Shown here piece after piece: positions 2,563 to 24,687 of a stretch of 32,000 bases of DNA. Origin of the DNA: Bacteroidota bacterium (GTDB lineage: Bacteria; Bacteroidota; Bacteroidia; B-17B0; Aurantibacillaceae); contig PLYA01000027.1 of assembly GCA_003153315.1 (NCBI GenBank), forward strand, positions 55,469 to 87,468. The letters are read 5' to 3'. Within the stretch, counting starts at the first letter, position 1. Each line of letters begins with the position of its first letter. The position numbers and the translations under genes were made by a program. Under the pieces are notes generated by a model. It was given only the letters and a program-made list of their open reading frames with translations. It was not told the DNA's origin and ran no database searches.

Positions 2563-3882
2563 ATGTTGAACAGTATATTGCTATTTAAGAGGAAGAGTAC
2601 TACTGTTCTTGTTTTTCTGACTTGGATGTTTCTTTCGTCCGCTTCTTTTGCTCAAACAGATGATATGCCAAAAGATAGCATTCCTAAAACTATCGGTATA
2701 AATGCGGTAGAGAAGATAATTGAAAGAGATTTAATTGATGTTACCCAGAAAGTTATCCGTTTTTTTACCCCGCATAGTTTAAGGCACCCTATAGTTGCCG
2801 ACAGTTTAAAAAAGGATTCCGACATGGTGTACTTTGCCTTTCTTCCTGCGGTGGGTTATGCATTGCAAACAGGCGTAACAGGTATAGTTGCCATAAATAT
2901 TTCTTTTTTTACCAGCAAGAAATACAGAAAAGATACCAGGCTTTCTTCCTTTACCGTAAATCCGGCATTTTCATTACAAAATCAGGTTATGATACCTATT
3001 CAGTCTAATATTTGGCTTAACAAAAACAGGATAAACCTATTGGGCGACTGGCGTTATTATTTATATCCAACTGATACATACGGCTTAGGCGGGCAAACTT
3101 CTCTGTCAAATAGCAATTTGGTAAGGTATTCGTTTGTAAGAGTATATGAACAGGCTTCTAAAAGATTATTACCTAACTTTTACGTTGGGCTTGGTTATGG
3201 GCTTGACTGGCACTTTGGTATGAGCGTTCAAGAAACAGATGGTCTTGGTACAGATTTTCAGACCTATAACCATAATAAGAAAAGAACTGTATCATCCGGT
3301 CCGGTTTTAAATTTAACTTATGATAGCAGAGATAATATAAATAATCCGCATAAGGGAAATTATGCTAATGTTATTTTTCATAGTAACCTTAAAACATTTG
3401 GAAGCAATAGAGACTGGCAATCGCTTCAAATTGATTTGAGAAAGTTTATTAAACTTCATAGAAACGATAGACATGTATTGGCTTTATGGAGTTATAACTG
3501 GTTTACTTTTGGAGGAAAAGCGCCTTATTTTGACTTACCAAGCACAGGCTGGGATACTTATTCTAACACAGGTAGAGGATATATACAAGGCAGGCTTAGA
3601 GGAGATAACTTTATTTATTTAGAATCTGAATACAGGGTTACTATTACAAAAAATGGGTTGTTTGGGGGTGTTGCTTTTGCTAATGCACAAAGCGTTTCAG
3701 ATTATCCACCGGCTAACCCTAAAAATTATTTCTCTAATAGATATACAACTATTTTACCCGCTGCCGGATTAGGCATACGATTAAAGATTAATAAAGTATC
3801 TAAAGTAAACTTTGCCCTTGATTATGCTTGGGGTATGGGTGGATCAAGAGGTTTCTTCTTTAATTTATCCGAAGTATTTTAA
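2563..3882 (+). CDS. outer-membrane beta-barrel protein, Omp85/surface-antigen (D15)-like, no POTRA domains evident
   Basis: The signal peptide ends in SSASFAQT. The C-terminal region RGYIQGRLRGDNFIYLESEYRV...GGVAFANAQ...AAGLGIRLKI...FALDYAWG resembles the bacterial surface antigen barrel, and the terminal residue is F. Confidence 0.68.
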   Translation: MLNSILLFKRKSTTVLVFLTWMFLSSASFAQTDDMPKDSIPKTIGINAVEKIIERDLIDVTQKVIRFFTPHSLRHPIVADSLKKDSDMVYFAFLPAVGYALQTGVTGIVAINISFFTSKKYRKDTRLSSFTVNPAFSLQNQVMIPIQSNIWLNKNRINLLGDWRYYLYPTDTYGLGGQTSLSNSNLVRYSFVRVYEQASKRLLPNFYVGLGYGLDWHFGMSVQETDGLGTDFQTYNHNKKRTVSSGPVLNLTYDSRDNINNPHKGNYANVIFHSNLKTFGSNRDWQSLQIDLRKFIKLHRNDRHVLALWSYNWFTFGGKAPYFDLPSTGWDTYSNTGRGYIQGRLRGDNFIYLESEYRVTITKNGLFGGVAFANAQSVSDYPPANPKNYFSNRYTTILPAAGLGIRLKINKVSKVNFALDYAWGMGGSRGFFFNLSEVF

Positions 3883-3929: not shown

Positions 3930-4170
3930 TCATTTTTCCCGCAAACGCAAAGTTATTATCCGCGATAATGCGGAACTTTTGCGCGAATACGCGGGAATTT
4001 GCCGCGAGCGCAAAGCTATTATCCGCGATGAGGCGGAACTTTTGCGCGATGATGCGGGAACTTTCCGCGAGCGCGAAGTTATTACCAGCGATAATACGGA
4101 ACTTTTGCGCGAATACGCGGAAGTTTGCCGCGAGCGCAAAGCTATCACCCGCGATGGGACGGAATGAGGG
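3930..4170. repeat. GC-rich tandem repeat: 63-bp unit x about 3.6 (units start at 3946, 4009, 4072, 4135), each built from three degenerate 21-bp modules
   Basis: Direct reading gives cgcaaagttattatccgcgataatgcggaacttttgcgcgaatacgcgggaatttgccgcgag, then two near-identical 63-bp copies and a partial fourth. It lies between the convergent OMP (+) and rng (-) genes. One 60-nt line (3961-4020) has 32 G+C, against AT-rich flanks. Confidence 0.9.
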
Positions 4171-4198: not shown

Positions 4199-5755
4199 TT
4201 AAATAATTATCTCGTCGTCAGCTTCATTATAAAACTTAAACTGCATAAAATTAAAGGATGCCATGCTGCGGATAGTTATTTTACAACCTGTTGTTTTTTT
4301 CCATTTAGAAAGCAAGCTGTTCCAAAAGAAACCTTTGGTTATAAAAGCTTCTATATAAGGATGTACACAAACAGTAATTTTCTTTAAGTTTTGTTCTTTT
4401 ATAACAAAACGAAGGGTGCTTTCTATTTGCTCTACAAAAAGCACACTTGGTTGCACTTTGCCTGTACCATTACAGCTCGGACAAACTTCCTGCACATCCA
4501 CATTCATTTCAGGGCGTACACGCTGACGGGTAAGTTGTATTAAGCCAAATTTACTTGGGGGAAGTATGTTATGCTTTGCCCTATCGGTTTTCATAAACTC
4601 TTTAAACTTTTCAAAGAGTTCTCTGCGATACTCGGGGTTACGCATATCAATAAAATCCACCACAATAATACCACCCATATCGCGCAATCTTAACTGACGG
4701 GCAATTTCTGCAGCAGCTTCCAGGTTTACTTCTAAGGCATTCTCATCTTGTGAATTAGTAGATTTTGCACGGTTTCCGCTGTTTACATCAATAACGTGCA
4801 GAGCTTCGGTATGCTCAATAAAAAGGTAAGCACCACTTTTTAAGTGAACCGTTTTACCAAAGAGTGATTTTATTTGTTTCTCTATTCCAAAATGATCAAA
4901 AATAGGAAGCTTACTATCATAAGGCTTAATAATATCAAGCTGATCGGGCGCAATATTTTTAAGATAAGTGGCCAGTTCGGATTGTATGTGCTTATCGTTG
5001 GTATGTATGGCAGAAAACTTTGCATTCAGTATATCACGTAATAAGGCATTGGTTCTATCAACTTCACCTAATACACGGGCGGGTGGCTGAGCTGTTTTTA
5101 ATGTTTTAAAACACTCATCCCATTTGGCAATCAGATCGTTTAAATCTCCTTCTATTTCTGCCACAGATTTCCCTTCAGCAACCGTACGAATAATTACCCC
5201 AAAGTTTTTTGGTTTAATATTCTGAACCAATTCTTTTAGTCTTATTTTTTCTTCATTACTGCGTATTTTAGAAGATATAGAAACCTTATCAGAAAAAGGA
5301 ATCAATACCAGAAAACGCCCTGCTAAAGATATTTCGCAGGTAACACGGGGTCCTTTGGCAGAGATAGGTTCTTTAGCAACCTGTATTAATATATCCTGCC
5401 CGCTTTTAACAACGCTATTTATCTTTCCGTCTTTAGGAATATCTTTTTCCAGTTTAAAATACATCAGGTTAGAAGCATTTTGCTTACCTGATTTTACTTG
5501 TTCTAAATACTTACTAAGTGTAGCAGCTTGCGGACCTAAATCAAGATAGTGCAGAAAAGCATCCTTTTCATACCCTACATCTATAAAAGCGGCGTTTAGC
5601 CCAGTCATTACTTTACCTACCCTTCCCAGGTAAATATCTCCAACAGCCCATTTAAGATTACCTCTCTCACGGTGCAGCTCAATCAAACGCTTATCGTCTA
5701 GCAAAGCTATAACTATCTCGTCTGAGGTTTTGTTTATAATCAGTTCGTAGTTCAC
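4199..5755 (-). CDS. rng: ribonuclease G / Rne-Rng family endoribonuclease
   Basis: 518 aa. S1 domain: GDIYLGRVGKVMTGLNAAFIDVGYEKDAFLH. Catalytic-core motifs: HVIDVNSG, GGIIVVDFIDM. The start codon is GTG (plus-strand cac at 5753-5755). Confidence 0.9.
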   Translation of the reverse strand: MNYELIINKTSDEIVIALLDDKRLIELHRERGNLKWAVGDIYLGRVGKVMTGLNAAFIDVGYEKDAFLHYLDLGPQAATLSKYLEQVKSGKQNASNLMYFKLEKDIPKDGKINSVVKSGQDILIQVAKEPISAKGPRVTCEISLAGRFLVLIPFSDKVSISSKIRSNEEKIRLKELVQNIKPKNFGVIIRTVAEGKSVAEIEGDLNDLIAKWDECFKTLKTAQPPARVLGEVDRTNALLRDILNAKFSAIHTNDKHIQSELATYLKNIAPDQLDIIKPYDSKLPIFDHFGIEKQIKSLFGKTVHLKSGAYLFIEHTEALHVIDVNSGNRAKSTNSQDENALEVNLEAAAEIARQLRLRDMGGIIVVDFIDMRNPEYRRELFEKFKEFMKTDRAKHNILPPSKFGLIQLTRQRVRPEMNVDVQEVCPSCNGTGKVQPSVLFVEQIESTLRFVIKEQNLKKITVCVHPYIEAFITKGFFWNSLLSKWKKTTGCKITIRSMASFNFMQFKFYNEADDEIII

Positions 5756-5968: not shown

Positions 5969-6796
5969 TTAAACATTACTTTTAAGTTGACTTATATATT
6001 TCTTTATTTGTTCTTTAATTTCTTTATCAGGAGTTAACTCTACGTATCTCTCCAGTGTTTCAATTGTTTTATTCTTCTCCCCCTCCTTTTCATATACATC
6101 GGCCAAAAACAAATAGGCCTCTAAGTATTCGGGATTTATTTTTACTACTTTTTTATAACGGGCTTCTGCTTTATCAAACTGACCTGATTTTACTGCGAAT
6201 GCTCCTAAGACCATTTGCACCTGTATATTTGTGCTATCGGCTCTTTCCACCTCTTTCAACATCCCTATACCTTTCATTGGGTCTGAGCTGCTTTCAACAT
6301 AACAAGAAGCTAACTGTATTTTTGCTTCTGTATAATCAGGCTTTTTGGCTAAGGCTTGGTTGTAACAATTCATGGCGCTTTGATAAAGGCTTTGTAACTG
6401 GTTCTTGTCTTTTATAAAACCCACTGAATAAAAATAACGGCTACCTGCATCGTACCATATTTTGGCTGTATTAACTTTCTCAGCTTTCTTCTCATAATAA
6501 TAGCAAGAGGCAAGAGGCATCTTTTTAGTATTAAAAAAGTCTATCAGGTTGTTTAAACCTGTAGTATCAGTAGCTTTTTTATCAAGAGTTTCATATTCTT
6601 TCTTATCCTTATCGGGCAAAGAAGAAACAATGGCATCTACAATTACTTTTATATCTACTACTTGCTGAGCTGCCTCAGTTTTTGTAGAAGTATCTTCGGC
6701 TTTTTTAACCGGTTTTTTGTTAGCAATAAATAAAAGAACGAATAATATAATTGAGCAAACAACTACGGTTAATTGTAGCGTACGCGTGTTTTTCAT
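5969..6796 (-). CDS. membrane-anchored tetratricopeptide (TPR) repeat protein
   Basis: N-terminal TM helix: LQLTVVVCSIILFVLLFIA. TPR-like repeats include YQSAMNCYNQALAKKPDY and AEARYKKVVKINPEYLEAYLFLADVYEKEG. It overlaps the HU stop by 4 nt, which suggests an operon. Confidence 0.75.
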   Translation of the reverse strand: MKNTRTLQLTVVVCSIILFVLLFIANKKPVKKAEDTSTKTEAAQQVVDIKVIVDAIVSSLPDKDKKEYETLDKKATDTTGLNNLIDFFNTKKMPLASCYYYEKKAEKVNTAKIWYDAGSRYFYSVGFIKDKNQLQSLYQSAMNCYNQALAKKPDYTEAKIQLASCYVESSSDPMKGIGMLKEVERADSTNIQVQMVLGAFAVKSGQFDKAEARYKKVVKINPEYLEAYLFLADVYEKEGEKNKTIETLERYVELTPDKEIKEQIKKYISQLKSNV

Positions 6797-7083
6797 TCTA
6801 CTTTAACATTTTTCTTAATCTTATCGGCAAAGGTTTTGGCAGGTTTAAAGGCAGGTATATAGTGTGCAGGTATATGAACCGCAGTGTTTTTAGTAATGTT
6901 GCGTCCTATTTTAGCTGCACGCTTTTTACATAAAAAAGTACCGAAACCACGCAGGTAAACGTTCTTGCCCTGCGTCATATTATTTTTTACCACTTTCATA
7001 AAAGATTCAACTGTATTAAGCACAATGGTACGCTCTACCCCCGTCTTTTCAGCTATTTCATTTACTATGTCGGCTTTGGTCAT
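6793..7083 (-). CDS. HU/IHF family DNA-binding protein
   Basis: 96 aa, MTKADIVNEIAEKTG...LRGFGTF...RNITKNTAVHIPAHYIPAFKPAK, the classic HU fold signature. Confidence 0.9.
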   Translation of the reverse strand: MTKADIVNEIAEKTGVERTIVLNTVESFMKVVKNNMTQGKNVYLRGFGTFLCKKRAAKIGRNITKNTAVHIPAHYIPAFKPAKTFADKIKKNVKVE

Positions 7084-7122
7084 TGTTTAAAATATTAATA
7101 TCTACTTTAAAAAAACAGGGGG

Positions 7123-7155
7123 CAAAGATACACTTTTTTCGTAACCTATTGCAAA
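7123..7155 (-). promoter_or_regulatory. candidate HU operon promoter (-33 TTTG / -7 TATCTTTG on the minus strand)
   Basis: Plus-strand caaagata (7123-7130) reads TATCTTTG on the minus strand. caaa (7152-7155) reads TTTG, with 21 nt between. The -7 box begins about 40 nt upstream of the HU ATG. Confidence 0.45.
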
Positions 7156-7402
7156 TTAATGTGTTTTTAGCAAAAGAAAAGATTTATACCTTATAAACCT
7201 TAGCAAGGATGCCTTTATCTTTTATATATACTTTAGTTTTATATAAAGACTTAGGGGTAGTTATTCAAACCCAATGTCATTTTTTTCAAACAAGTGTTAC
7301 TTTGTTAAGTTAAGAGTTTAGTTTGAAGTATTTATTTTAAATGTTTCACAGGGTGTTTCGCAATTCTTAAATTTACATTCTTCATTTTTAATTAAAAGAA
7401 CT

Positions 7403-9139
7403 ATGCATTATAAGTTATATATCAAAAACCCCTCATCGCATTATCTGTATATAGATTTGGTAATTGATAAGATAGATAGCGATACACTTAGCCTACAATT
7501 ACCTGCATGGCGCCCAGGTAGATATGAGTTGGGTAACTTTGCCAAGAACATAAAAAAGCTTGATGCTTTTGATGCTGCCGGTAAACCACTTAGTTACAAA
7601 AAAACAAGCAAAGATTGCTGGCAAATAAATACACAGGGGCATACAGAAATTAAAGTTACCTATAGTTACTACGCCGCCGAACTAAATGCAGGTTCTACTT
7701 ATGTGGATGAAAACCAAATGTATGTAAACCCATGCAATTGCCTGATGTATGTGCCCACCAAGATGCGGGAAAAACATACAATTACTTTAGATATACCCGA
7801 TACCTATAAAATTGCCACCTCTTTACAAAAAGAAAACAAAATGCTTACAGCAGTTGGTTTTGATGAACTGGCTGATTCTCCTTTTATTGCAACCCAGCAT
7901 ATACATCAAGTAACATTTAATATTCAGCATTTAACATTTTATTTACATTTTGTTGGAGAATGTACCCCTGATGAAGAAAGATTGAAGAAAGATTTCTCAC
8001 GCTTTATTGCCGAGCAGATTGCATTCTTTAACGGAGCGCATTTTAAAGAGTATCATTTCTTATTTCAAATACTGCCTCAAAAGTTCCATCACGGGGTAGA
8101 GCATACACACAATACAGTTATAGCCTTTGGTCCCGGTTATCATTTAATGCATAACGAAGTGTATAATGAGTTCTTGGGTTTGTGTTGCCATGAGTTGTTT
8201 CATACCTGGAATATAAAGAGTATTCGCCCTGCCGAGATGTTTCCTTATGATTATACCAAAGAGAATTATGCCCGAACAGGTTTTGTGTATGAGGGTGTTA
8301 CTACTTATTACGGAGATAAATTATTGTTTACTTCAAACCTGTTTAATGAAGATGTTTATTTTAAGTCTTTTGAAGAACGTTTAACCAAACACCTGCATAG
8401 CTTTGGCAGGTATAATCTTTCGTTAGGCGATAGCAGTTTTGATAATTGGCTGGATGGTTACAACCCGGGGGCTCCTTACCGCAAAACAAATATTTATGAT
8501 GAAGGTTGTTTAATTGCTTTTATGCTGGATGTTTTAATAAGGAAACATACGGGCAACAAAAATAATTTGCAAACGGTGTTGAAGAACTTATATGATAACT
8601 TCTATAAGAAGCAAAAGGGCTATACCGAAGAAAATTTTACCAAAGCATGCTCTGAAGCTGCTAATTACGATTTACAGGATTTCTTTACCAAATATGTATA
8701 TGGCTTAGAGCCTTACGAACCCATGTTGCACGAATGCGCTGGTTATATAGGCATTGAGTTGCACAAACAACACGCAGTTACATTCTATGAAAGGCATTTA
8801 GGTTTAAAAGCAGCCGAAGTAAATCATCATAAAAAAGTAACGATGGTTGCTCCCTATTCTCCTGCATGGAAAGCAGGTATTTCTATAGGTGATGAAATTA
8901 TTGCTGCCAATGGTTTTATTTTAAAGAATGATTTTAACCAATGGTTAACACATTTTTCTCATAAAAGTGCAGATTGTCTGTTAAGCGTGATGCGTAATAA
9001 TCAACTGATACAAATAAACATTCCTCTAAAACAGGAAGGAGATTTTTTCTATACCTATAAATTGATTAAACAACAGTATCTTACAGCCATACAAAAAGAG
9101 AATTACAATTGCTGGAAAAAATCTTTTTCTAAAACTTAA
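7403..9139 (+). CDS. M61 family (glycyl aminopeptidase-like) metallopeptidase with C-terminal PDZ domain
   Basis: 578 aa. HELFHTWN is an HExxH zinc motif in an M61-like context. The PDZ-like segment is APYSPAWKAGISIGDEIIAANG. Confidence 0.85.
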   Translation: MHYKLYIKNPSSHYLYIDLVIDKIDSDTLSLQLPAWRPGRYELGNFAKNIKKLDAFDAAGKPLSYKKTSKDCWQINTQGHTEIKVTYSYYAAELNAGSTYVDENQMYVNPCNCLMYVPTKMREKHTITLDIPDTYKIATSLQKENKMLTAVGFDELADSPFIATQHIHQVTFNIQHLTFYLHFVGECTPDEERLKKDFSRFIAEQIAFFNGAHFKEYHFLFQILPQKFHHGVEHTHNTVIAFGPGYHLMHNEVYNEFLGLCCHELFHTWNIKSIRPAEMFPYDYTKENYARTGFVYEGVTTYYGDKLLFTSNLFNEDVYFKSFEERLTKHLHSFGRYNLSLGDSSFDNWLDGYNPGAPYRKTNIYDEGCLIAFMLDVLIRKHTGNKNNLQTVLKNLYDNFYKKQKGYTEENFTKACSEAANYDLQDFFTKYVYGLEPYEPMLHECAGYIGIELHKQHAVTFYERHLGLKAAEVNHHKKVTMVAPYSPAWKAGISIGDEIIAANGFILKNDFNQWLTHFSHKSADCLLSVMRNNQLIQINIPLKQEGDFFYTYKLIKQQYLTAIQKENYNCWKKSFSKT

Positions 9140-9922: not shown

Positions 9923-11353
9923 CTATGGAAGGCTTATCTTCTTTTCCAATTCATCTATATATAAACGGAAACGTTTATCTGTATCCATTAAGTTATTTAC
10001 TGTACGGCAAGCATGTAAAACCGTTGCGTGGTCTTTTCCACCACAATGCATACCAATAGTTGCTAAAGATGATTTAGTCATACTCTTTGAAAAATACATT
10101 GCAATCTGACGGGCTTGCACCACTTCACGTTTTCGGGTTTTAGATTTCATGGTATCAATTGGCAAGTCAAAATAATCGCAAACAACTTTCTGTATATAGT
10201 CAATGGAAACTTCACGTGCAGTAGTTTTCACAAACTTGTCAATCATTTGTTTGGCAAGTTCAAGCGTAATTAATTTTTTATTTAATGTAGATTGTGCAAG
10301 CAAAGAAGTTAAGGCGCCTTCCAATTCACGTACATTGCTGGTAATACTATAAGCCAAATACTCAACCACTTCTTTTGGCAAATCAATTCCTTCTGTATAA
10401 ACTTTCTTTTCTAAAATAGCAATACGTGTTTCTAATGCCGGTGGCTGCAAATCAGCTGATAAGCCCCATTTGAAGCGAGAAAGTAATCGTTGTTCAATAC
10501 CTTGTAAATCAACAGGGGGTCTGTCTGAAGTTAAAATAACCTGTTTACCAACCTGATGTAGGTGATTAAATACATGGAAGAAAACATCCTGTGTCTTTTC
10601 TTTATTTGCTAAAAACTGAACATCATCTATTATCAGGATATCAATCATCTGATAAAAGTTAACGAAATCATTTTGAGCGTTATTCTTAATGGCATCTACA
10701 AACTGACGGGAAAATATTTCCGACTGTACATATAATACGGTCTTGTTCGGGAAATTATTTTTACATTCAATACCTATAGCTTGTGCTAAGTGAGTTTTAC
10801 CTACACCGTTAGTACCATATATTAATAAAGGGTTAAATGCGGTTCCACCGGGTTTTTGTGCAACCGCAAATGCAGCAGAACGAGCCAAACGGTTACAATC
10901 TCCTTCGATAAAATTATCGAAAGAATATTTTGTGTTTAGCTGAGACTCTACAACTACCTTTTTTAATCCAGGAATGATGAAAGGATTCCTTATAGGATTA
11001 GTACTGATATCAATAGGCATTGATACTGGAGAATTCTTTATATCTCTGTTTAAAGAAGGTACCTTTATTGTAATAGGTCTTTCTCCTTTATGAGAATTTT
11101 CCATTACTATATTATACTCAATACGTCCATCAGTACCAAGTTCTTTGCGGGTAACTTTTTTAAGTAACGTTATATAATGTTCTTCCAACCAATCATAAAA
11201 AAATTGCGACGGTACTTGTATAGTTAAAACTTTATCGTGTAGTTTAATAGCCTTAATAGGTTCAAACCATGTTTTATAATTTTGCGGATTCACGTTGTCC
11301 TTTATAACACTGAGGCAATTGTTCCAAACAGATTCGGCTGTTTTTTTATCCAT
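9923..11353 (-). CDS. dnaA: chromosomal replication initiator protein DnaA
   Basis: Walker A GTNGVGKTHL, Walker B IIDDVQFL, sensor motifs, and C-terminal DnaA-box binding domain ...GGKDHATVLHACRTV. The ORF track starts at the TTG at 11359. I prefer the in-frame ATG at 11353 (MDKKTAESVWN). Confidence 0.95.
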   Translation of the reverse strand: MDKKTAESVWNNCLSVIKDNVNPQNYKTWFEPIKAIKLHDKVLTIQVPSQFFYDWLEEHYITLLKKVTRKELGTDGRIEYNIVMENSHKGERPITIKVPSLNRDIKNSPVSMPIDISTNPIRNPFIIPGLKKVVVESQLNTKYSFDNFIEGDCNRLARSAAFAVAQKPGGTAFNPLLIYGTNGVGKTHLAQAIGIECKNNFPNKTVLYVQSEIFSRQFVDAIKNNAQNDFVNFYQMIDILIIDDVQFLANKEKTQDVFFHVFNHLHQVGKQVILTSDRPPVDLQGIEQRLLSRFKWGLSADLQPPALETRIAILEKKVYTEGIDLPKEVVEYLAYSITSNVRELEGALTSLLAQSTLNKKLITLELAKQMIDKFVKTTAREVSIDYIQKVVCDYFDLPIDTMKSKTRKREVVQARQIAMYFSKSMTKSSLATIGMHCGGKDHATVLHACRTVNNLMDTDKRFRLYIDELEKKISLP

Positions 11354-11576
11354 GTTCAATTTCTTAATTTATTTTAAAGTGCGTATATATAATTCCTTAA
11401 CAATTTCTTTACATTAAATTCATTTGCAAAAATGATTTTATCTACAAACGAGCTAACAAATAAATACTAAAAAATCAGTAAAAAAAAATTTATTAGTACT
11501 TGTTTTTGTTATTTTTTCTTCTCGGGATATTTATTTAAAAAATATTTCTTCAATTCAATTTTTTTATTAAAAGAGG

Positions 11577-15315: not shown

Positions 15316-16260
15316 ATGCTTAATATTGTTTTATTTGGCCCTCCGGGTGCAGGCAAAGGAACACAGTCAAAAAAATTATGCGAGGCTTATCATTTGATAC
15401 ACCTCTCTACCGGCGATTTATTGCGCGATGAAATTAGTCGTGTTACCGAACTGGGTATGCAGGCAAAATCGATTATGGATAAAGGAGAGCTGGTAAGCGA
15501 CGAGATTGTAATTGCCATGATTGATGCCAAGCTAAATGCCAATCCGCAAGCTAAAGGTTTTATTTTTGATGGCTTTCCGCGCACGCAGGCACAGGCACAA
15601 GCCTTAGATGAATTATTGGAGAAAAGAAATGCCCCCATCAGCATGATGATTGCCTTAGAGGTAAATGATGTTGAATTATTGCATCGCTTGCTTCTTCGCG
15701 GAGCAGAATCAGGTAGACCTGATGACAGAGATGAGAACGTTATACGACGCAGGATATTTAATTACAATAACCAAACAGCTCCATTAAAGAAGTATTACTC
15801 GCAACAAAACAAGTTCCATTCTGTTTACGGCATGGGGACGGTAGAAAACATCTTTGAATTACTATGCGCTACCATTGATAACAAAACACAGATTAAAAAA
15901 CCTTACCATGATGGTACTGTAACCATTGCCGATGTGAGTATGGAAGATGAACCTGCCAAACATTTAAGAGCCATTAAAGAAACTCCTAAAACAAACCTTG
16001 CTAAGAAAGCTATAGTTAAAAAGAAAGTGGCAGCTAAACCTGCAAAAAAGATAGCAAAGAAATCTGCTCCAAAAAAAGCAAAAGCTAAAACCAAACCTGT
16101 TAAAAAAGCAATAGCTAAAAAGGTTGTAAAGAAAGCCGCTGCAAAAAAAGTAGTTAAAAAAGCTGCTCTTAAAAAAGCAAAAAAAATTAAAAAAATAACT
16201 GCAAAAAAGAAAGTAGTAGCTAAAAAAACAACCAAAAAATCTTCTAAGAAGAGAAAATAA
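15316..16260 (+). CDS. adk: adenylate kinase (short-LID type) with a long C-terminal Lys/Ala-rich histone-H1-like extension
   Basis: P-loop GPPGAGKGTQ, STGDLLR, and FDGFPRT in the first ~190 aa. The same frame continues without a stop for about 120 more aa, the last ~90 being AKKAIVKKKVAAKPAKKIAKKSAPKKAKAKTKPVKKAIAKKVVKKAAAKKVVKK... Confidence 0.9.
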   Translation: MLNIVLFGPPGAGKGTQSKKLCEAYHLIHLSTGDLLRDEISRVTELGMQAKSIMDKGELVSDEIVIAMIDAKLNANPQAKGFIFDGFPRTQAQAQALDELLEKRNAPISMMIALEVNDVELLHRLLLRGAESGRPDDRDENVIRRRIFNYNNQTAPLKKYYSQQNKFHSVYGMGTVENIFELLCATIDNKTQIKKPYHDGTVTIADVSMEDEPAKHLRAIKETPKTNLAKKAIVKKKVAAKPAKKIAKKSAPKKAKAKTKPVKKAIAKKVVKKAAAKKVVKKAALKKAKKIKKITAKKKVVAKKTTKKSSKKRK

Positions 16261-21477: not shown

Positions 21478-22191
21478 ATGAATAAAACAAGGGGATTGGT
21501 ATTAAAAATTTGTATAGTAATACTTGCTGCTATTGCCGCAATACTTCCTTTAATTTGGAAGAAAGAACATATTGCAAAAACAATAATAATAGTTTTTGCT
21601 TTAATTACTATTTGCACTCTTTCATGGATAGACGCCGTAAGAGAAACAAATGAATCGGATAAAAAGGATAATAATCATGTTTTAGAATTAAGAAAGGATA
21701 GTTTAAGATATATAAAAGACAGTATTAAAAGAGAAGACCAATATTATCAACAAATAACAGCCTTACAGTATATAGCAGCAAAAAAAAGAGATAGTTTGTT
21801 GAGTATAATAAATAGCAATTATTTATATGGAAACATTATTGAAAAAAGTAAATTGTTCTTAGTGTCAGGAATGGGAAATAGAATAGTGGTAAATGGAGAT
21901 ACTTATTTAAAAGAAAGGCGTTTAACTCAAAAAGAAAAAGAGGAAATATATTCTAAATTAACGATGTTAAAGGTTTTTTATCCTGATGTGAAATTTTATC
22001 AGATAAACACAATAATTAATAACAGATTAGTTCAAGATATTAAAGTATTTATGAATCAAAATGGATACGAATCTGCAACATCAGACGGCGGAATGATGGC
22101 AGGTAATTTTCAGTTCAAAGGAATTAAAGTAGGCTACGATAATTTTATGAAATGTATTTCTATATCTATAGGGGCTATAGAAGAAGAGTAA
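21478..22191 (+). CDS. hypothetical membrane protein (two N-terminal TM helices, charged coiled-coil-like middle, unknown C-terminal domain)
   Basis: A 237-codon ORF in extremely AT-rich DNA, where stop codons are frequent, argues for real coding. TM helices: LVLKICIVILAAIAAILPLIW and TIIIVFALITICTLSWI. I recognise no family. Confidence 0.6.
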   Translation: MNKTRGLVLKICIVILAAIAAILPLIWKKEHIAKTIIIVFALITICTLSWIDAVRETNESDKKDNNHVLELRKDSLRYIKDSIKREDQYYQQITALQYIAAKKRDSLLSIINSNYLYGNIIEKSKLFLVSGMGNRIVVNGDTYLKERRLTQKEKEEIYSKLTMLKVFYPDVKFYQINTIINNRLVQDIKVFMNQNGYESATSDGGMMAGNFQFKGIKVGYDNFMKCISISIGAIEEE

Positions 22192-22283: not shown

Positions 22284-22293
22284 GGGTTGTTTA

Positions 22294-22587
22294 TTCGGAA
22301 TGAGTTATTGGTTATTCGCTAAGACTCATTAATCATTCGGAATAACACATTACCTATTCGTTATGACTGATTAATCATTCAGAATGAGATATTAGTCATT
22401 CAGAATAAGTTATTGATTATTCGTAATGACACATTAGTTAAACGGAATGACTTATTGATTATTCGGAATAATACATCAATCATTCGTTAAGACTCATTAG
22501 TTATTCGCTACAACACATTAATCATTCCGAATAAAACATTGGTTATTCGGAATGATTAGTTACTTATTCGTTAAGAACAACTGTTTA
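22294..22587. repeat. array of 14 contiguous, exactly phased 21-bp direct repeats, consensus TTCGGAATGACnCATTAATTA
   Basis: The units start at 22294 + 21n with no indel. U1-U7: ttcggaatgagttattggtta, ttcgctaagactcattaatca, ttcggaataacacattaccta, ttcgttatgactgattaatca, ttcagaatgagatattagtca, ttcagaataagttattgatta, ttcgtaatgacacattagtta. U8-U14: aacggaatgacttattgatta, ttcggaataatacatcaatca, ttcgttaagactcattagtta, ttcgctacaacacattaatca, ttccgaataaaacattggtta, ttcggaatgattagttactta, ttcgttaagaacaactgttta. The last unit contains the stop codon of the minus-strand ORF. Confidence 0.95.
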
Positions 22588-23301
22588 TAGGGGGCTTGGG
22601 TTATTGCCTGTGCTGGTAGATGCGGGTATAACCTCAGAGATAGAGCTGCTCCAATGATAATCGGCGGCGTTTGCATCTACCGTTGGATATATACCTTTGC
22701 CCACAGGGGGAGTAAAATCATATTGAAAATATACCCTTACATCATGCGGCAGGTTAATAATAGTAACCGTACTTTTATGAGTAGATTTTACCTGATGCCA
22801 GGTAACCTGGTCGGTGCTCCACCTAAAATGGTGTACCGAGCCTGCACCCGAAGCAGGAGTTTCTATGGTGGCAGAACCTCCGGAAACGCTTAGTACCCTA
22901 AAAATATGTTTATGATTGGTTCCGTGGCCAACGGGTGCCAAGCCAAAACGGGCAAAAACAGTGGTAATTTGGGCAATATTGCCCGGAAACTTTTGGTTGC
23001 AAACACTGTCAATATAATTTACCAATATATCGGTATTATGCAACAGGGTGCTTCCTTTGCTAAGTTCATCAGAAGTTAGCGTGGCCGACCTTGCCGTTTG
23101 CCTTGCCACCACATCGGTATTCAAATCGCCAATATTGGTGGTATATATAGGAATAGTGAGCGGCGCGGGTATGCCGCTGGCAGGCACATCGGGGTCTATA
23201 GCCAACTGATTTTTTAAAGCAGTGGCAAATGGCACTAATTCTTCAGATGTTTTGTTGTGGTAATCCTTTGCGGCTTTTACCCAGGTTATTGAGTTTTTCA
23301 T
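22585..23301 (-). CDS. hypothetical protein; helical N-terminal half, possible Fn3/Ig-like beta-sandwich C-terminal half; no signal peptide
   Basis: A 238-aa ORF with an ATG start, GC-richer than its neighbours (30 G+C in the 60 nt at 22621-22680). The C-terminal HHFRWSTDQVTWHQVKSTHKSTVTIINLPHDVRVYFQY looks like a fibronectin-III-type strand pattern, but this is pattern recognition only. I recognise no family. Confidence 0.62.
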   Translation of the reverse strand: MKNSITWVKAAKDYHNKTSEELVPFATALKNQLAIDPDVPASGIPAPLTIPIYTTNIGDLNTDVVARQTARSATLTSDELSKGSTLLHNTDILVNYIDSVCNQKFPGNIAQITTVFARFGLAPVGHGTNHKHIFRVLSVSGGSATIETPASGAGSVHHFRWSTDQVTWHQVKSTHKSTVTIINLPHDVRVYFQYDFTPPVGKGIYPTVDANAADYHWSSSISEVIPASTSTGNNPSPL

Positions 23302-23367: not shown

Positions 23368-23436
23368 GTTGTCTGGAACAGAGAGGCGGTTGTCTATTTC
23401 TTAGGAGCTGTTGTCTATCGCAGAGATAAGTTGTCT
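23368..23436. promoter_or_regulatory. four direct GTTGTCT motifs spaced 21, 21 and 20 bp apart, upstream of the 22585..23301 ORF
   Basis: gttgtct occurs at 23368-23374, 23389-23395, 23410-23416 and 23430-23436, in the contexts cGGTTGTCTGGA, cGGTTGTCTATT, cTGTTGTCTATC and aAGTTGTCTGGG. The nearest copy is 67 nt upstream of the ATG at 23301. I found no canonical TAnnTTTG box for this gene. Confidence 0.55.
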
Positions 23437-23448
23437 GGGACTTTAGCT

Positions 23449-23474
23449 AACACCTGTAGCGCTTTGCAGGTGTT
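23449..23474 (+). other. 8-bp hairpin aacacctg-tagcgctttg-caggtgtt followed by ttat, between divergent genes
   Basis: I read the stem directly, and the loop contains the palindrome agcgct. On the plus strand it resembles an intrinsic terminator, but no annotated plus-strand gene ends here. Confidence 0.4.
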
Positions 23475-23577
23475 TTATATGCGTAAAACGAGGGGTGTTT
23501 TAAATTATTGTATGACGATGAAAATATTTTTTTCGTTATTAACTTTTATCCTTATTTTAGAGCTAAAATAAAACTGT

Positions 23578-24687
23578 ATGAGAAAGATTTACTTTATTAA
23601 AATGCTTGCTTTGCTACTGCCTCTGCAAATTTTTTCTCAAACAAGCGTATCGCAGTTAACCGTAACACCAGATTCGGTAGCTACCACATTGGCACAGGCT
23701 ATAGAAGGTAGTGGTGTAACCATAAGTAGTGCATCTTTAAACTGCGGTGCAGGGGGTGCAGGAACATTTTCATATCCAAGTACAGGTACTAATTTAGGTT
23801 TAACCAATGGGATACTTCTAACAAATGGTGGCGCAAATATTGTTGCAAATGCAGGATCTTATTTTTGTTCCGTTCAAACAGGAAATAATTTTACTGATAC
23901 TGATTTAACAGCTATTTATACTTCTGATACAAATGATGTTTGCATACTTCAATTTGATATTATACCTATGGGCGATACCATGAGTATTAAGTATGTTTTT
24001 GGCTCTGAAGAATATAATGGATATGTATGTTCACCTTTTAATGATGCATTCGGATTCTTTTTAACCGGACTTAACCCTGCAGGTGGTACATATAATGGGC
24101 AAAACATAGCTATTCTTCCGGGGATAACACCTGCAACACCTGTATCTATCAATACTGTAAATAATGGGGGTACCATGTATCCATGTTCAGCTACTAATCC
24201 CTCTTTTTACCATGATAATATTGCAAGCCCTAATAATGATATTGCTTATGATGGATATACCATACCCATTACCTCTGTTATTCCGGTGGTAGCATCTGCT
24301 ACTTATCATATTAAAATAGCTATTGCTGATGCAAGTGATGAAATTTTTGATTCCGGAGTTTTTATACAGGATGGCATTAGCAGTAATCAACCAAATACAA
24401 CCAATATTAATCTGTTAAATAAACAAGATAAAACCTTGCTTGTTTATCCTAATCCAACCAACGGCATACTTACTATTAAATATACTCTAAATAATACTGA
24501 TTGCAATGAGGCTGTTTTGCAGCTATTGGAAATGAATAGTGGTACTACAATACTTAAGAAAAATATAGCTTGCAATGCTACTCAAACACAAATTGATATG
24601 AGCGAATTGCCAAGCGGTGTTTATTCCTTAAGCATACTAAGTAATACAAATGCCTCAAAGAATATAAAGGTAATTAAGGTGAAGTAA
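23578..24687 (+). CDS. T9SS-secreted protein: choice-of-anchor L-like domain plus type A C-terminal sorting domain
   Basis: Signal peptide ...LLLPLQIFSQT. The segment GLTNGILLTNG...TDTDL...FDIIPMGDTMSIKYVFGSEEY...NDAFGFFL...ILPG...VSINTVNNG matches the choice-of-anchor L pattern. The C-terminal LLVYPNPTNGILTIKY...LPSGVYSLSIL...IKVIKVK is a Por/T9SS CTD. Confidence 0.85.
   Translation: MRKIYFIKMLALLLPLQIFSQTSVSQLTVTPDSVATTLAQAIEGSGVTISSASLNCGAGGAGTFSYPSTGTNLGLTNGILLTNGGANIVANAGSYFCSVQTGNNFTDTDLTAIYTSDTNDVCILQFDIIPMGDTMSIKYVFGSEEYNGYVCSPFNDAFGFFLTGLNPAGGTYNGQNIAILPGITPATPVSINTVNNGGTMYPCSATNPSFYHDNIASPNNDIAYDGYTIPITSVIPVVASATYHIKIAIADASDEIFDSGVFIQDGISSNQPNTTNINLLNKQDKTLLVYPNPTNGILTIKYTLNNTDCNEAVLQLLEMNSGTTILKKNIACNATQTQIDMSELPSGVYSLSILSNTNASKNIKVIKVK

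Follow-up and report, generated by a model that had tools for sequence, protein, structure and literature searches.

A gene-linked tandem repeat array of 21-bp period in uncultured Bacteroidota

An indel-free array abutting a 238-amino-acid gene

To understand a block of 21-bp direct repeats that abuts the stop codon of a protein-coding gene, we analysed 32,000 nucleotides of Bacteroidota DNA surrounding it (hereafter the window; GenBank contig PLYA01000027.1, positions 55,469 to 87,468). The window belongs to a metagenomic scaffold of 206 kb (WOOD18-1 scaffold_234) in a Bacteroidota metagenome-assembled genome (MAG), and the array is placed between two convergent genes encoding proteins of 237 amino acids (aa; 21478..22191, plus strand) and 238 aa (22585..23301, minus strand). 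Array and 238-aa gene together constitute a gene-plus-repeat module found in uncultured Bacteroidota and apparently previously undescribed; full-text literature searches returned no description of such arrays. Three features of the window carry the analysis:

22294..22587, no strand assigned: 21-bp repeat array of 14 units without an indel, non-coding, GC 29%
22585..23301, minus strand: gene for the 238-aa protein, partner of the array, from an unannotated family with a novel helical N-domain (residues 1-124) and an FN3-like beta-sandwich C-domain
23368..23436, minus strand: four AGACAAC sites at 23368, 23389, 23410 and 23430, with spacings of 21, 21 and 20 bp

Tandem Repeats Finder (TRF) recovers the array at 22291-22570 with a period of 21, 13.3 copies, 65% matches and 0% indels, and also gives super-periods of 42 and 63 bp. 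Laid out head to tail from 22294, the array resolves into 14 in-register units with the plus-strand consensus TTCGGAATGACTCATTAATTA (CGAATAATTAATGAGTCATTC on the gene-sense strand), a mean pairwise identity of 0.67 and invariant positions c3, a7, a10 and a21. When tabulated, the units show two subtypes, one GGAAT-like and the other G(C/T)TA-like. Farthest from the consensus, at 57%, is the final unit (22567-22587), which holds the TAA stop codon of the 238-aa open reading frame (ORF). The 14 phased copies, the invariant positions, the two subtypes and the abutted stop codon had all been described in an earlier prediction made from the sequence alone (the original prediction), and each is borne out here. 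A two-unit skeleton of the conserved positions has 18 overlapping matches in the window, all within the array, compared with 0.03 in shuffled sequence; the consensus occurs nowhere else in the 32-kb window, and the unit is likewise absent from the other family loci described below.

The array is non-coding: no ORF of at least 60 aa crosses it, and stop codons are present in all six frames. Its GC content is 29%, compared with 45% in the adjoining 238-aa gene, and transfer RNA and Rfam searches of the array found no match. The units are contiguous without spacers and no cas domains occur among the neighbouring genes, in agreement with the earlier claim that the array is neither coding nor a clustered regularly interspaced short palindromic repeat (CRISPR) locus. 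A further claim, that unit junctions form an ATTC-N-GAAT dyad, holds for the count of seven occurrences and fails on significance. The best inverted repeat in the unit consensus reaches P=0.17 against shuffles, and dyads across 17 related arrays stay at chance level (combined P 0.31); we rejected on these grounds a per-unit dyad or hairpin in any of its guises (ATTC-N-GAAT, ACAATTGT, ACCATGGT and similar palindromes). A 7-bp sub-period is seen in only a few arrays, among them those of the window, L002 and L013, and a heptamer was accordingly rejected as the basic unit.

Gene-array linkage across loci

The 238-aa gene, taken to be an orphan in the original prediction, belongs to a family. Its product has 29 homologous clusters, none of them named, in Bacteroidia of peat and soil, and a profile search with the family gives 93 representatives, mostly of 200-260 aa. 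AlphaFold gives a confident model of the protein with two domains (predicted local distance difference test score of 82 at full length and 93 for the N-domain by itself), and the protein has no sequence match in Pfam, PHROG, PADLOC, NCBIfam or PDB. Homologues were not found in IMG/VR, INPHARED or PLSDB, and a tblastn search against 72,556 plasmids gave no match. On the lack of matches in IMG/VR, INPHARED, PLSDB, PHROGs and PADLOC, we rejected a phage, plasmid or defence-system origin. Between loci L015 and L021, 9/9 differences in the coding part fall at third codon positions, indicating that the gene is under purifying selection.

Loci carrying family genes were gathered from a genome scan (L002-L008, from three MAGs), a metagenome scan (L009-L023) and exact-protein look-ups (P0024 and the distant homologues P0122, P0124, P0035, P0125, P0127 and P0129); contig look-ups for P0002 and P0005 gave no result. 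Collapsing identical contigs left 26 distinct loci, extending down to a profile E of ~1e-21. An array with a period of 21 bp, or of its multiples 42, 63, 84, 105 or 126, lies downstream of the gene in 26/26 of them, beginning 0-417 bp after the stop codon and comprising 6 to 47 units, and the linkage holds in distant homologues too (P0122, P0124 and the P0035 group). TRF detects the array in 24/26 loci; it fails at L019 and L027, where autocorrelation of the non-coding DNA downstream of the gene is strongest at lags of 21, 42 and 63. Unlinked period-21 arrays of at least five units number only ~2 in the ~216 kb fetched (window 3935-4164 and L018 1063-1182), a rarity that, set against linkage in 26/26 loci, excludes chance adjacency. 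The tie to homologues of the 238-aa ORF that the original prediction had proposed to look for is therefore present at every locus, and the generic dispersed satellite with no conserved neighbour, which it had named as the case that would undo it, is excluded.

What the arrays conserve is period and phase rather than sequence. For proteins less than ~80% identical, the units are no more alike than shuffled ones. By contrast, the period is 21 or a multiple of it in every array, none having drifted to another value, and even where successive units have decayed to ~47-65% identity, a single phase persists over 190-376 bp without a slip. Many substitutions without a phase-shifting indel point to selection on spacing, or else continuing in-register homogenisation. 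In the young array of L015 and L021, variation is concentrated at unit positions 9-13 with the core fixed, and the two strains differ by one whole unit. The core shared between unit types is weak, though over-represented: AACAAT on the gene-sense strand occurs in 6/21 unit types, with a shuffle maximum of 5. It is also strand-biased: on the sense strand, 8 unit types have AACAA and only 1 has the complementary TTGTT. A mild excess of A over T marks the sense strand in 17/23 arrays.

Gene and array are distributed like a cassette. No neighbouring gene is common to all loci and the flanks differ between them; the 237-aa gene that converges on the window array has no Pfam match and is not conserved at other family loci. 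Two pairs of loci have genes that are similar at the nucleotide level, L005/L007 (88% identity) and L004/L016 (90.5%). Beyond the coding sequence, the likeness reaches at most to the array unit (19/21 identical in L005/L007); in neither pair does word-9 blastn find similarity further upstream, in the spacer between gene and array or past the array. Several copies can coexist in a genome, with four in MFD04780.bin.1.106, two in SPRUCE 208 and four in GCA_043800975.1, and a second family copy, L029, occurs in the same sample as the window. Paralogues in one genome each carry a different repeat unit.

Intrinsic terminators separate gene from array in at least seven loci (L005, L007, L019, L020, L023, L027 and L034), and the array is not universally a 3' untranslated region (UTR). 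About ten loci with a gap of up to 45 bp, the window among them, have no terminator in between, and at the window and L035 the array abuts the stop codon, from which we conclude that the window array is at least partly transcribed. The earlier suggestion that the array may be a repeat-laden 3' UTR acting as an RNA sponge is thus weakened as a general account, though in the window the transcript would at least reach into the array. Predicted folding of array RNA is stronger than that of shuffles, with no consistent strand preference and no conserved hairpin; we did not favour a conserved RNA structure, given that the favoured strand differs between loci and that Rfam gives no match.

Upstream of the window gene, 66-135 nt before its ATG, lies the cluster of AGACAAC sites. 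The heptamer has only four copies in 32 kb, all in this cluster and on the gene's strand, and a phased 6-mer chain of at least three members arises in 2/2000 shuffles, and the window holds no other cluster of this kind. The four copies share just their 7-bp core, the spacers not being conserved, as expected of protein-binding sites. This core is similar to that of related arrays, (G)AACAA(T/C), and two units of the cluster (1-2) match the L005/L007 unit at 13-14/21 positions. Judged by these sequence features, the cluster is probably a small phased group of sites in the promoter region. Among the other loci, phased core sites upstream of the gene were found only at L035, where a 21-bp array precedes the gene.

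Candidate mechanisms and comparison with known systems

A period of 21 bp corresponds to two turns of B-DNA, and the original prediction had placed every site of the array on one face of the helix, an idea that fits strict conservation of phase without conservation of sequence. We tentatively favour a reading in which the array is a helically phased platform of double-stranded DNA for a cooperatively binding protein, probably the product of its own gene. Direct-repeat sites exactly two helical turns apart would present one helix face, on which the protein would load cooperatively, one protomer or oligomer per 21 bp (~7.1 nm), to build a continuous nucleoprotein array. The adjoining gene's product would be the likeliest binder, its specificity co-evolving with the local unit sequence; it stands first among candidates in that no other component is universally co-inherited and the unit differs with each paralogue. 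In the window, the four upstream AGACAAC sites would be the operator-like part, serving autoregulation, and the 14 downstream units a high-capacity platform that titrates or anchors the protein. That the array works at the DNA level, and that it is bound by a protein and by this one in particular, is what we infer, counting for DNA over RNA the two-turn period, the terminators in seven loci, the lack of a strand preference in folding, the lack of dyads and the phased elements upstream. A bolder and doubtful extension is that these pairs form a new cognate protein-repeat class, in which the helical-plus-FN3 protein would polymerise, one protomer per two turns, on a paralogue-specific array of 6-47 sites to yield a chromosomal nucleoprotein filament or a ribonucleoprotein (RNP), the whole being a relocatable cassette.

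Several observations weigh against such a platform. Its weakest point is that no nucleic-acid-binding fold is recognisable in the family protein: a structural search of PDB gave no neighbour for the N-domain (best E 0.39), the C-domain matches only FN3 folds of a generic kind, and the window protein, judged by reading its sequence, is not notably basic. Classic curved DNA would be enriched in the 10.5-bp harmonic of A/T content, whereas the array is depleted in it, and intrinsic curvature was rejected. All loci were located through the protein rather than through arrays, and all carrier organisms are uncultured MAGs. A second 21-bp array in the window, at 3935-4164, has no FN3-family gene near it, so that such arrays exist without the family gene in this genome. 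The array lies 3' of the gene, on the same side, in 26/26 loci, and co-transcription of gene and array is likely in the roughly ten terminator-free loci, including the window.

The last two points lead to an RNA-level partnership, which we consider rather unlikely, in which the array would be transcribed by read-through or from its own promoter and the RNA, with a protomer to every 21 nt, would bind or regulate the protein and serve as RNP scaffold, sponge or antidote. The invariant downstream position, the short terminator-free gaps, the strand-biased core and the A>T skew of the sense strand all favour it, as does the similarity to type III toxin-antitoxin systems, for which cognate, paralogue-specific and fast-evolving repeat-protein pairs are typical (PMC3401426). 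However, terminators stand between gene and array in at least seven loci, no consistent folding strand, conserved hairpin or dyad emerges, Rfam is silent and the protein is unrelated to ToxN, CptN or TenpN; nor does an RNA offer any obvious reason for keeping an exact 21-nt phase over hundreds of bases.

A separate regulator acting in trans, for instance of the LytTR type, could instead bind the array, with the upstream AGACAAC sites activating or repressing the gene, the downstream array serving as a decoy or enhancer-like sink and the family protein reduced to cargo. This would account for a family protein without a DNA-binding fold. LytTR regulators bind direct repeats of ~9 bp, 12 (11-13) bp apart and thus of 21-bp period, just upstream of the promoter (PMC6193735), and the window's AGACAAC cluster is in a matching position. 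Stand-alone LytTR genes also lie directly upstream of the family gene at L004/L014 and L007/L017, paralogous loci of one MAG (L004 5549-5920, 123 aa, and L007 945-1304, 119 aa; Pfam E 1e-15 and 1e-9; 32% identical). Yet this adjacency, a lead rather than a finding, extends to only 2/26 loci, with no LytTR gene in the window or at L016, the close relative of L004. In our own comparison the array cores fit the published LytTR consensus poorly, paralogue-specific units would need many different regulators, and decoy arrays of 6-47 sites are without precedent for LytTR regulators; we regard a trans-acting regulator as distinctly unlikely.

A selectively neutral origin seems to us improbable. Here an ancestral 21-bp minisatellite beside an ancestral gene would have been kept by unequal crossing-over and gene conversion, its period frozen by in-register slippage, in lineages rich in 7- and 21-bp repeats. 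Higher-order periods of 42-126 bp, the gain or loss of a unit between L015 and L021 and rapid turnover are indeed typical satellite dynamics, 7-bp microsatellites are common in these MAGs, and the window holds an unlinked 21/63-bp array. Against neutrality, the array is kept beside its gene in all 26 loci, even where flanks are unrelated; the unit is not dispersed, as a variable-number tandem repeat or dispersed satellite would be; no array has taken up another period; decayed arrays that are no longer homogenised have gathered many substitutions and no phase-shifting indel; and a conserved core is flanked by variable unit positions. Finally, 21 bp is also seven codons, and homogeneous arrays hold long open frames on either strand, some of them annotated (ELRQLFL repeats at L004, a 128-aa call at L024), as if they encoded a heptad-repeat, coiled-coil peptide. 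This is effectively refuted: the open frame and its strand vary between loci relative to the shared core, the degenerate arrays of the window, L013, L019, L020 and L027 have stops in six frames at about the random rate, and array composition has no 3-bp periodicity. We therefore rejected a coding heptad repeat.

In its logic the module resembles iterons, centromeres, type III toxin-antitoxin systems and CRISPR, and it is a member of none of them. In iteron systems, an array titrates the initiator that binds it, and a site in the initiator's promoter provides autoregulation, so that promoter sites accompany a separate titrating array (PMC6090056). Iterons of theta-replicating plasmids and chromids, such as P1 incA, F incC and the Vibrio RctB sites, are direct repeats of ~17-22 bp at about two-turn spacing, beside the cognate gene and with a sequence specific to each paralogue or replicon; likewise, the window's 14 x 21 bp abut their gene, with arrays at 26/26 related loci. 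Unlike iteron initiators, the family protein shows no feature of Rep proteins or of winged-helix domains, its models being a novel helical bundle plus FN3 and its sequence being without a match in Pfam, NCBIfam or PDB. Its loci lie among housekeeping genes on the chromosome, can number several to a genome and have no homologues on plasmids, and the arrays are strictly contiguous and far longer, at up to 47 units. The contiguous short direct repeats of type II/III centromeres (parC-ParR, tubC-TubR), which lie beside the gene of a protein that coats them as a helix or filament, are similar in layout. However, the neighbours of family loci include no domain of a partition nucleoside triphosphatase (ParA, ParM or TubZ) or of a centromere-binding protein, the protein lacks a ribbon-helix-helix or winged helix-turn-helix fold and the loci are not on plasmids. 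The iterons and parC/parS arrays proposed as analogues in the original prediction consequently do not apply: Rep, ParA/ParM and ParB/ParR-like proteins are all missing, and the locus is chromosomal with no plasmid match.

Type III toxin-antitoxin systems (ToxIN, CptIN, TenpIN) pair a protein gene with adjacent short non-coding tandem repeats, often with a terminator between, and like the family they form cognate pairs that diverge quickly and number several per genome (PMC3401426). They differ in order, repeats preceding the gene there and following it in 26/26 family loci, where the terminators in at least seven loci stand in the reverse arrangement. They also differ in unit length and number (~34-40 nt in 2-5.5 copies, compared with 21 nt in 6-47), and in the protein, the helical bundle plus FN3 with no Pfam or PADLOC match being unrelated to ToxN/AbiQ, CptN and TenpN. 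Type III repeat RNAs form pseudoknots and are cut into single units; predicted folding of family arrays gave neither a conserved hairpin nor a consistent strand preference. LytTR sites, as bound by AgrA, ComE and HdrR/BrsR, are direct repeats spaced 21 bp from centre to centre (PMC6193735), a spacing shared by array and AGACAAC cluster; the cluster is suitably upstream and its geometry fits, and two loci have a LytTR gene upstream of the family gene. By contrast, known sites comprise two or three repeats and precede a promoter, where the family arrays have 6-47 units and follow a gene; the match to the consensus is poor, and the window and most loci have no LytTR gene.

If functional, the module would be a new example of a protein family always inherited with a tandem-repeat element of its own, a logic common to Rep-iteron, ParR-parC, ToxN-ToxI and Cas-CRISPR pairs; here the fold is uncharacterised and the rule unusually strict, exactly 21 bp with the sequence free. 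The module gives a concrete handle on an unannotated family present in several copies per genome in peat and soil Bacteroidota, and its arrays would be natural orthogonal phased binding platforms that may serve as synthetic DNA or RNA scaffolds. Even if functionless, persistence and conservation of phase over very deep divergence would be notable in the evolution of a bacterial satellite.

Genomic surroundings and further repeats

The window locus is chromosomal, not plasmid or phage, and housekeeping genes surround the array, including panC, ssb, obg, adk and dnaA and those for a heptosyltransferase, glycogen synthase, HU and RNase E/G. The window includes dnaA (9923-11359, minus strand) and an HU-family gene (6793-7083, minus strand), and the chromosomal origin may be near; the array is ~11 kb from dnaA, and the other family loci are not near dnaA. 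The adenylate kinase ORF (15316-16260, plus strand) has a Lys/Ala-rich C-terminal tail of ~100 aa that is histone H1-like, with KKAAKK-type repeats, which explain the TRF matches at 16072-16196.

Divergent from the 238-aa gene is a gene for cargo of the type IX secretion system (T9SS; 23578-24687). T9SS cargo genes, with Por_Secre_tail or CHU_C C-terminal domains, also occur within ~3 kb upstream of the family gene at L001, L002/L029, L005, L006, L032, L033 and L035. This amounts to roughly half of the loci with enough flank, and the class may be enriched there. Between the AGACAAC cluster and the window's cargo gene, a hairpin, ACACCTG-N10-CAGGTGT followed by TTTATA (23450-23479, plus strand), was not picked up by the terminator scan; it may terminate transcription weakly or mark where a small RNA ends.

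Other repeats accompany the module. The second indel-free array of the window, at 3935-4164, has 3.7 copies of 63 bp with 80% matches and CGCG-rich units, and sits between a convergent Omp85-like gene (2563-3882, plus strand) and RNase E/G gene (4199-5755, minus strand). Tandem repeats of 7 bp in 3-17 copies are frequent in the intergenic DNA of L003, L005, L006, L007, L008, L009, L016, L018, L021, L023 and L033, often right beside the 21-bp arrays or inside the gene-array spacer. Public gene calls of 85-139 aa lie over arrays on either strand (5783-6015 in L024-L026 and equivalents, 4760-5179 in L034 and 5642-5908 in L030), and are probably spurious calls on repeat DNA. At L008, directly after the array, ~7 copies of a 201-bp coding repeat extend over 7061-8543; from reading the sequence, we take them to be similar to homing-endonuclease-associated repeats.

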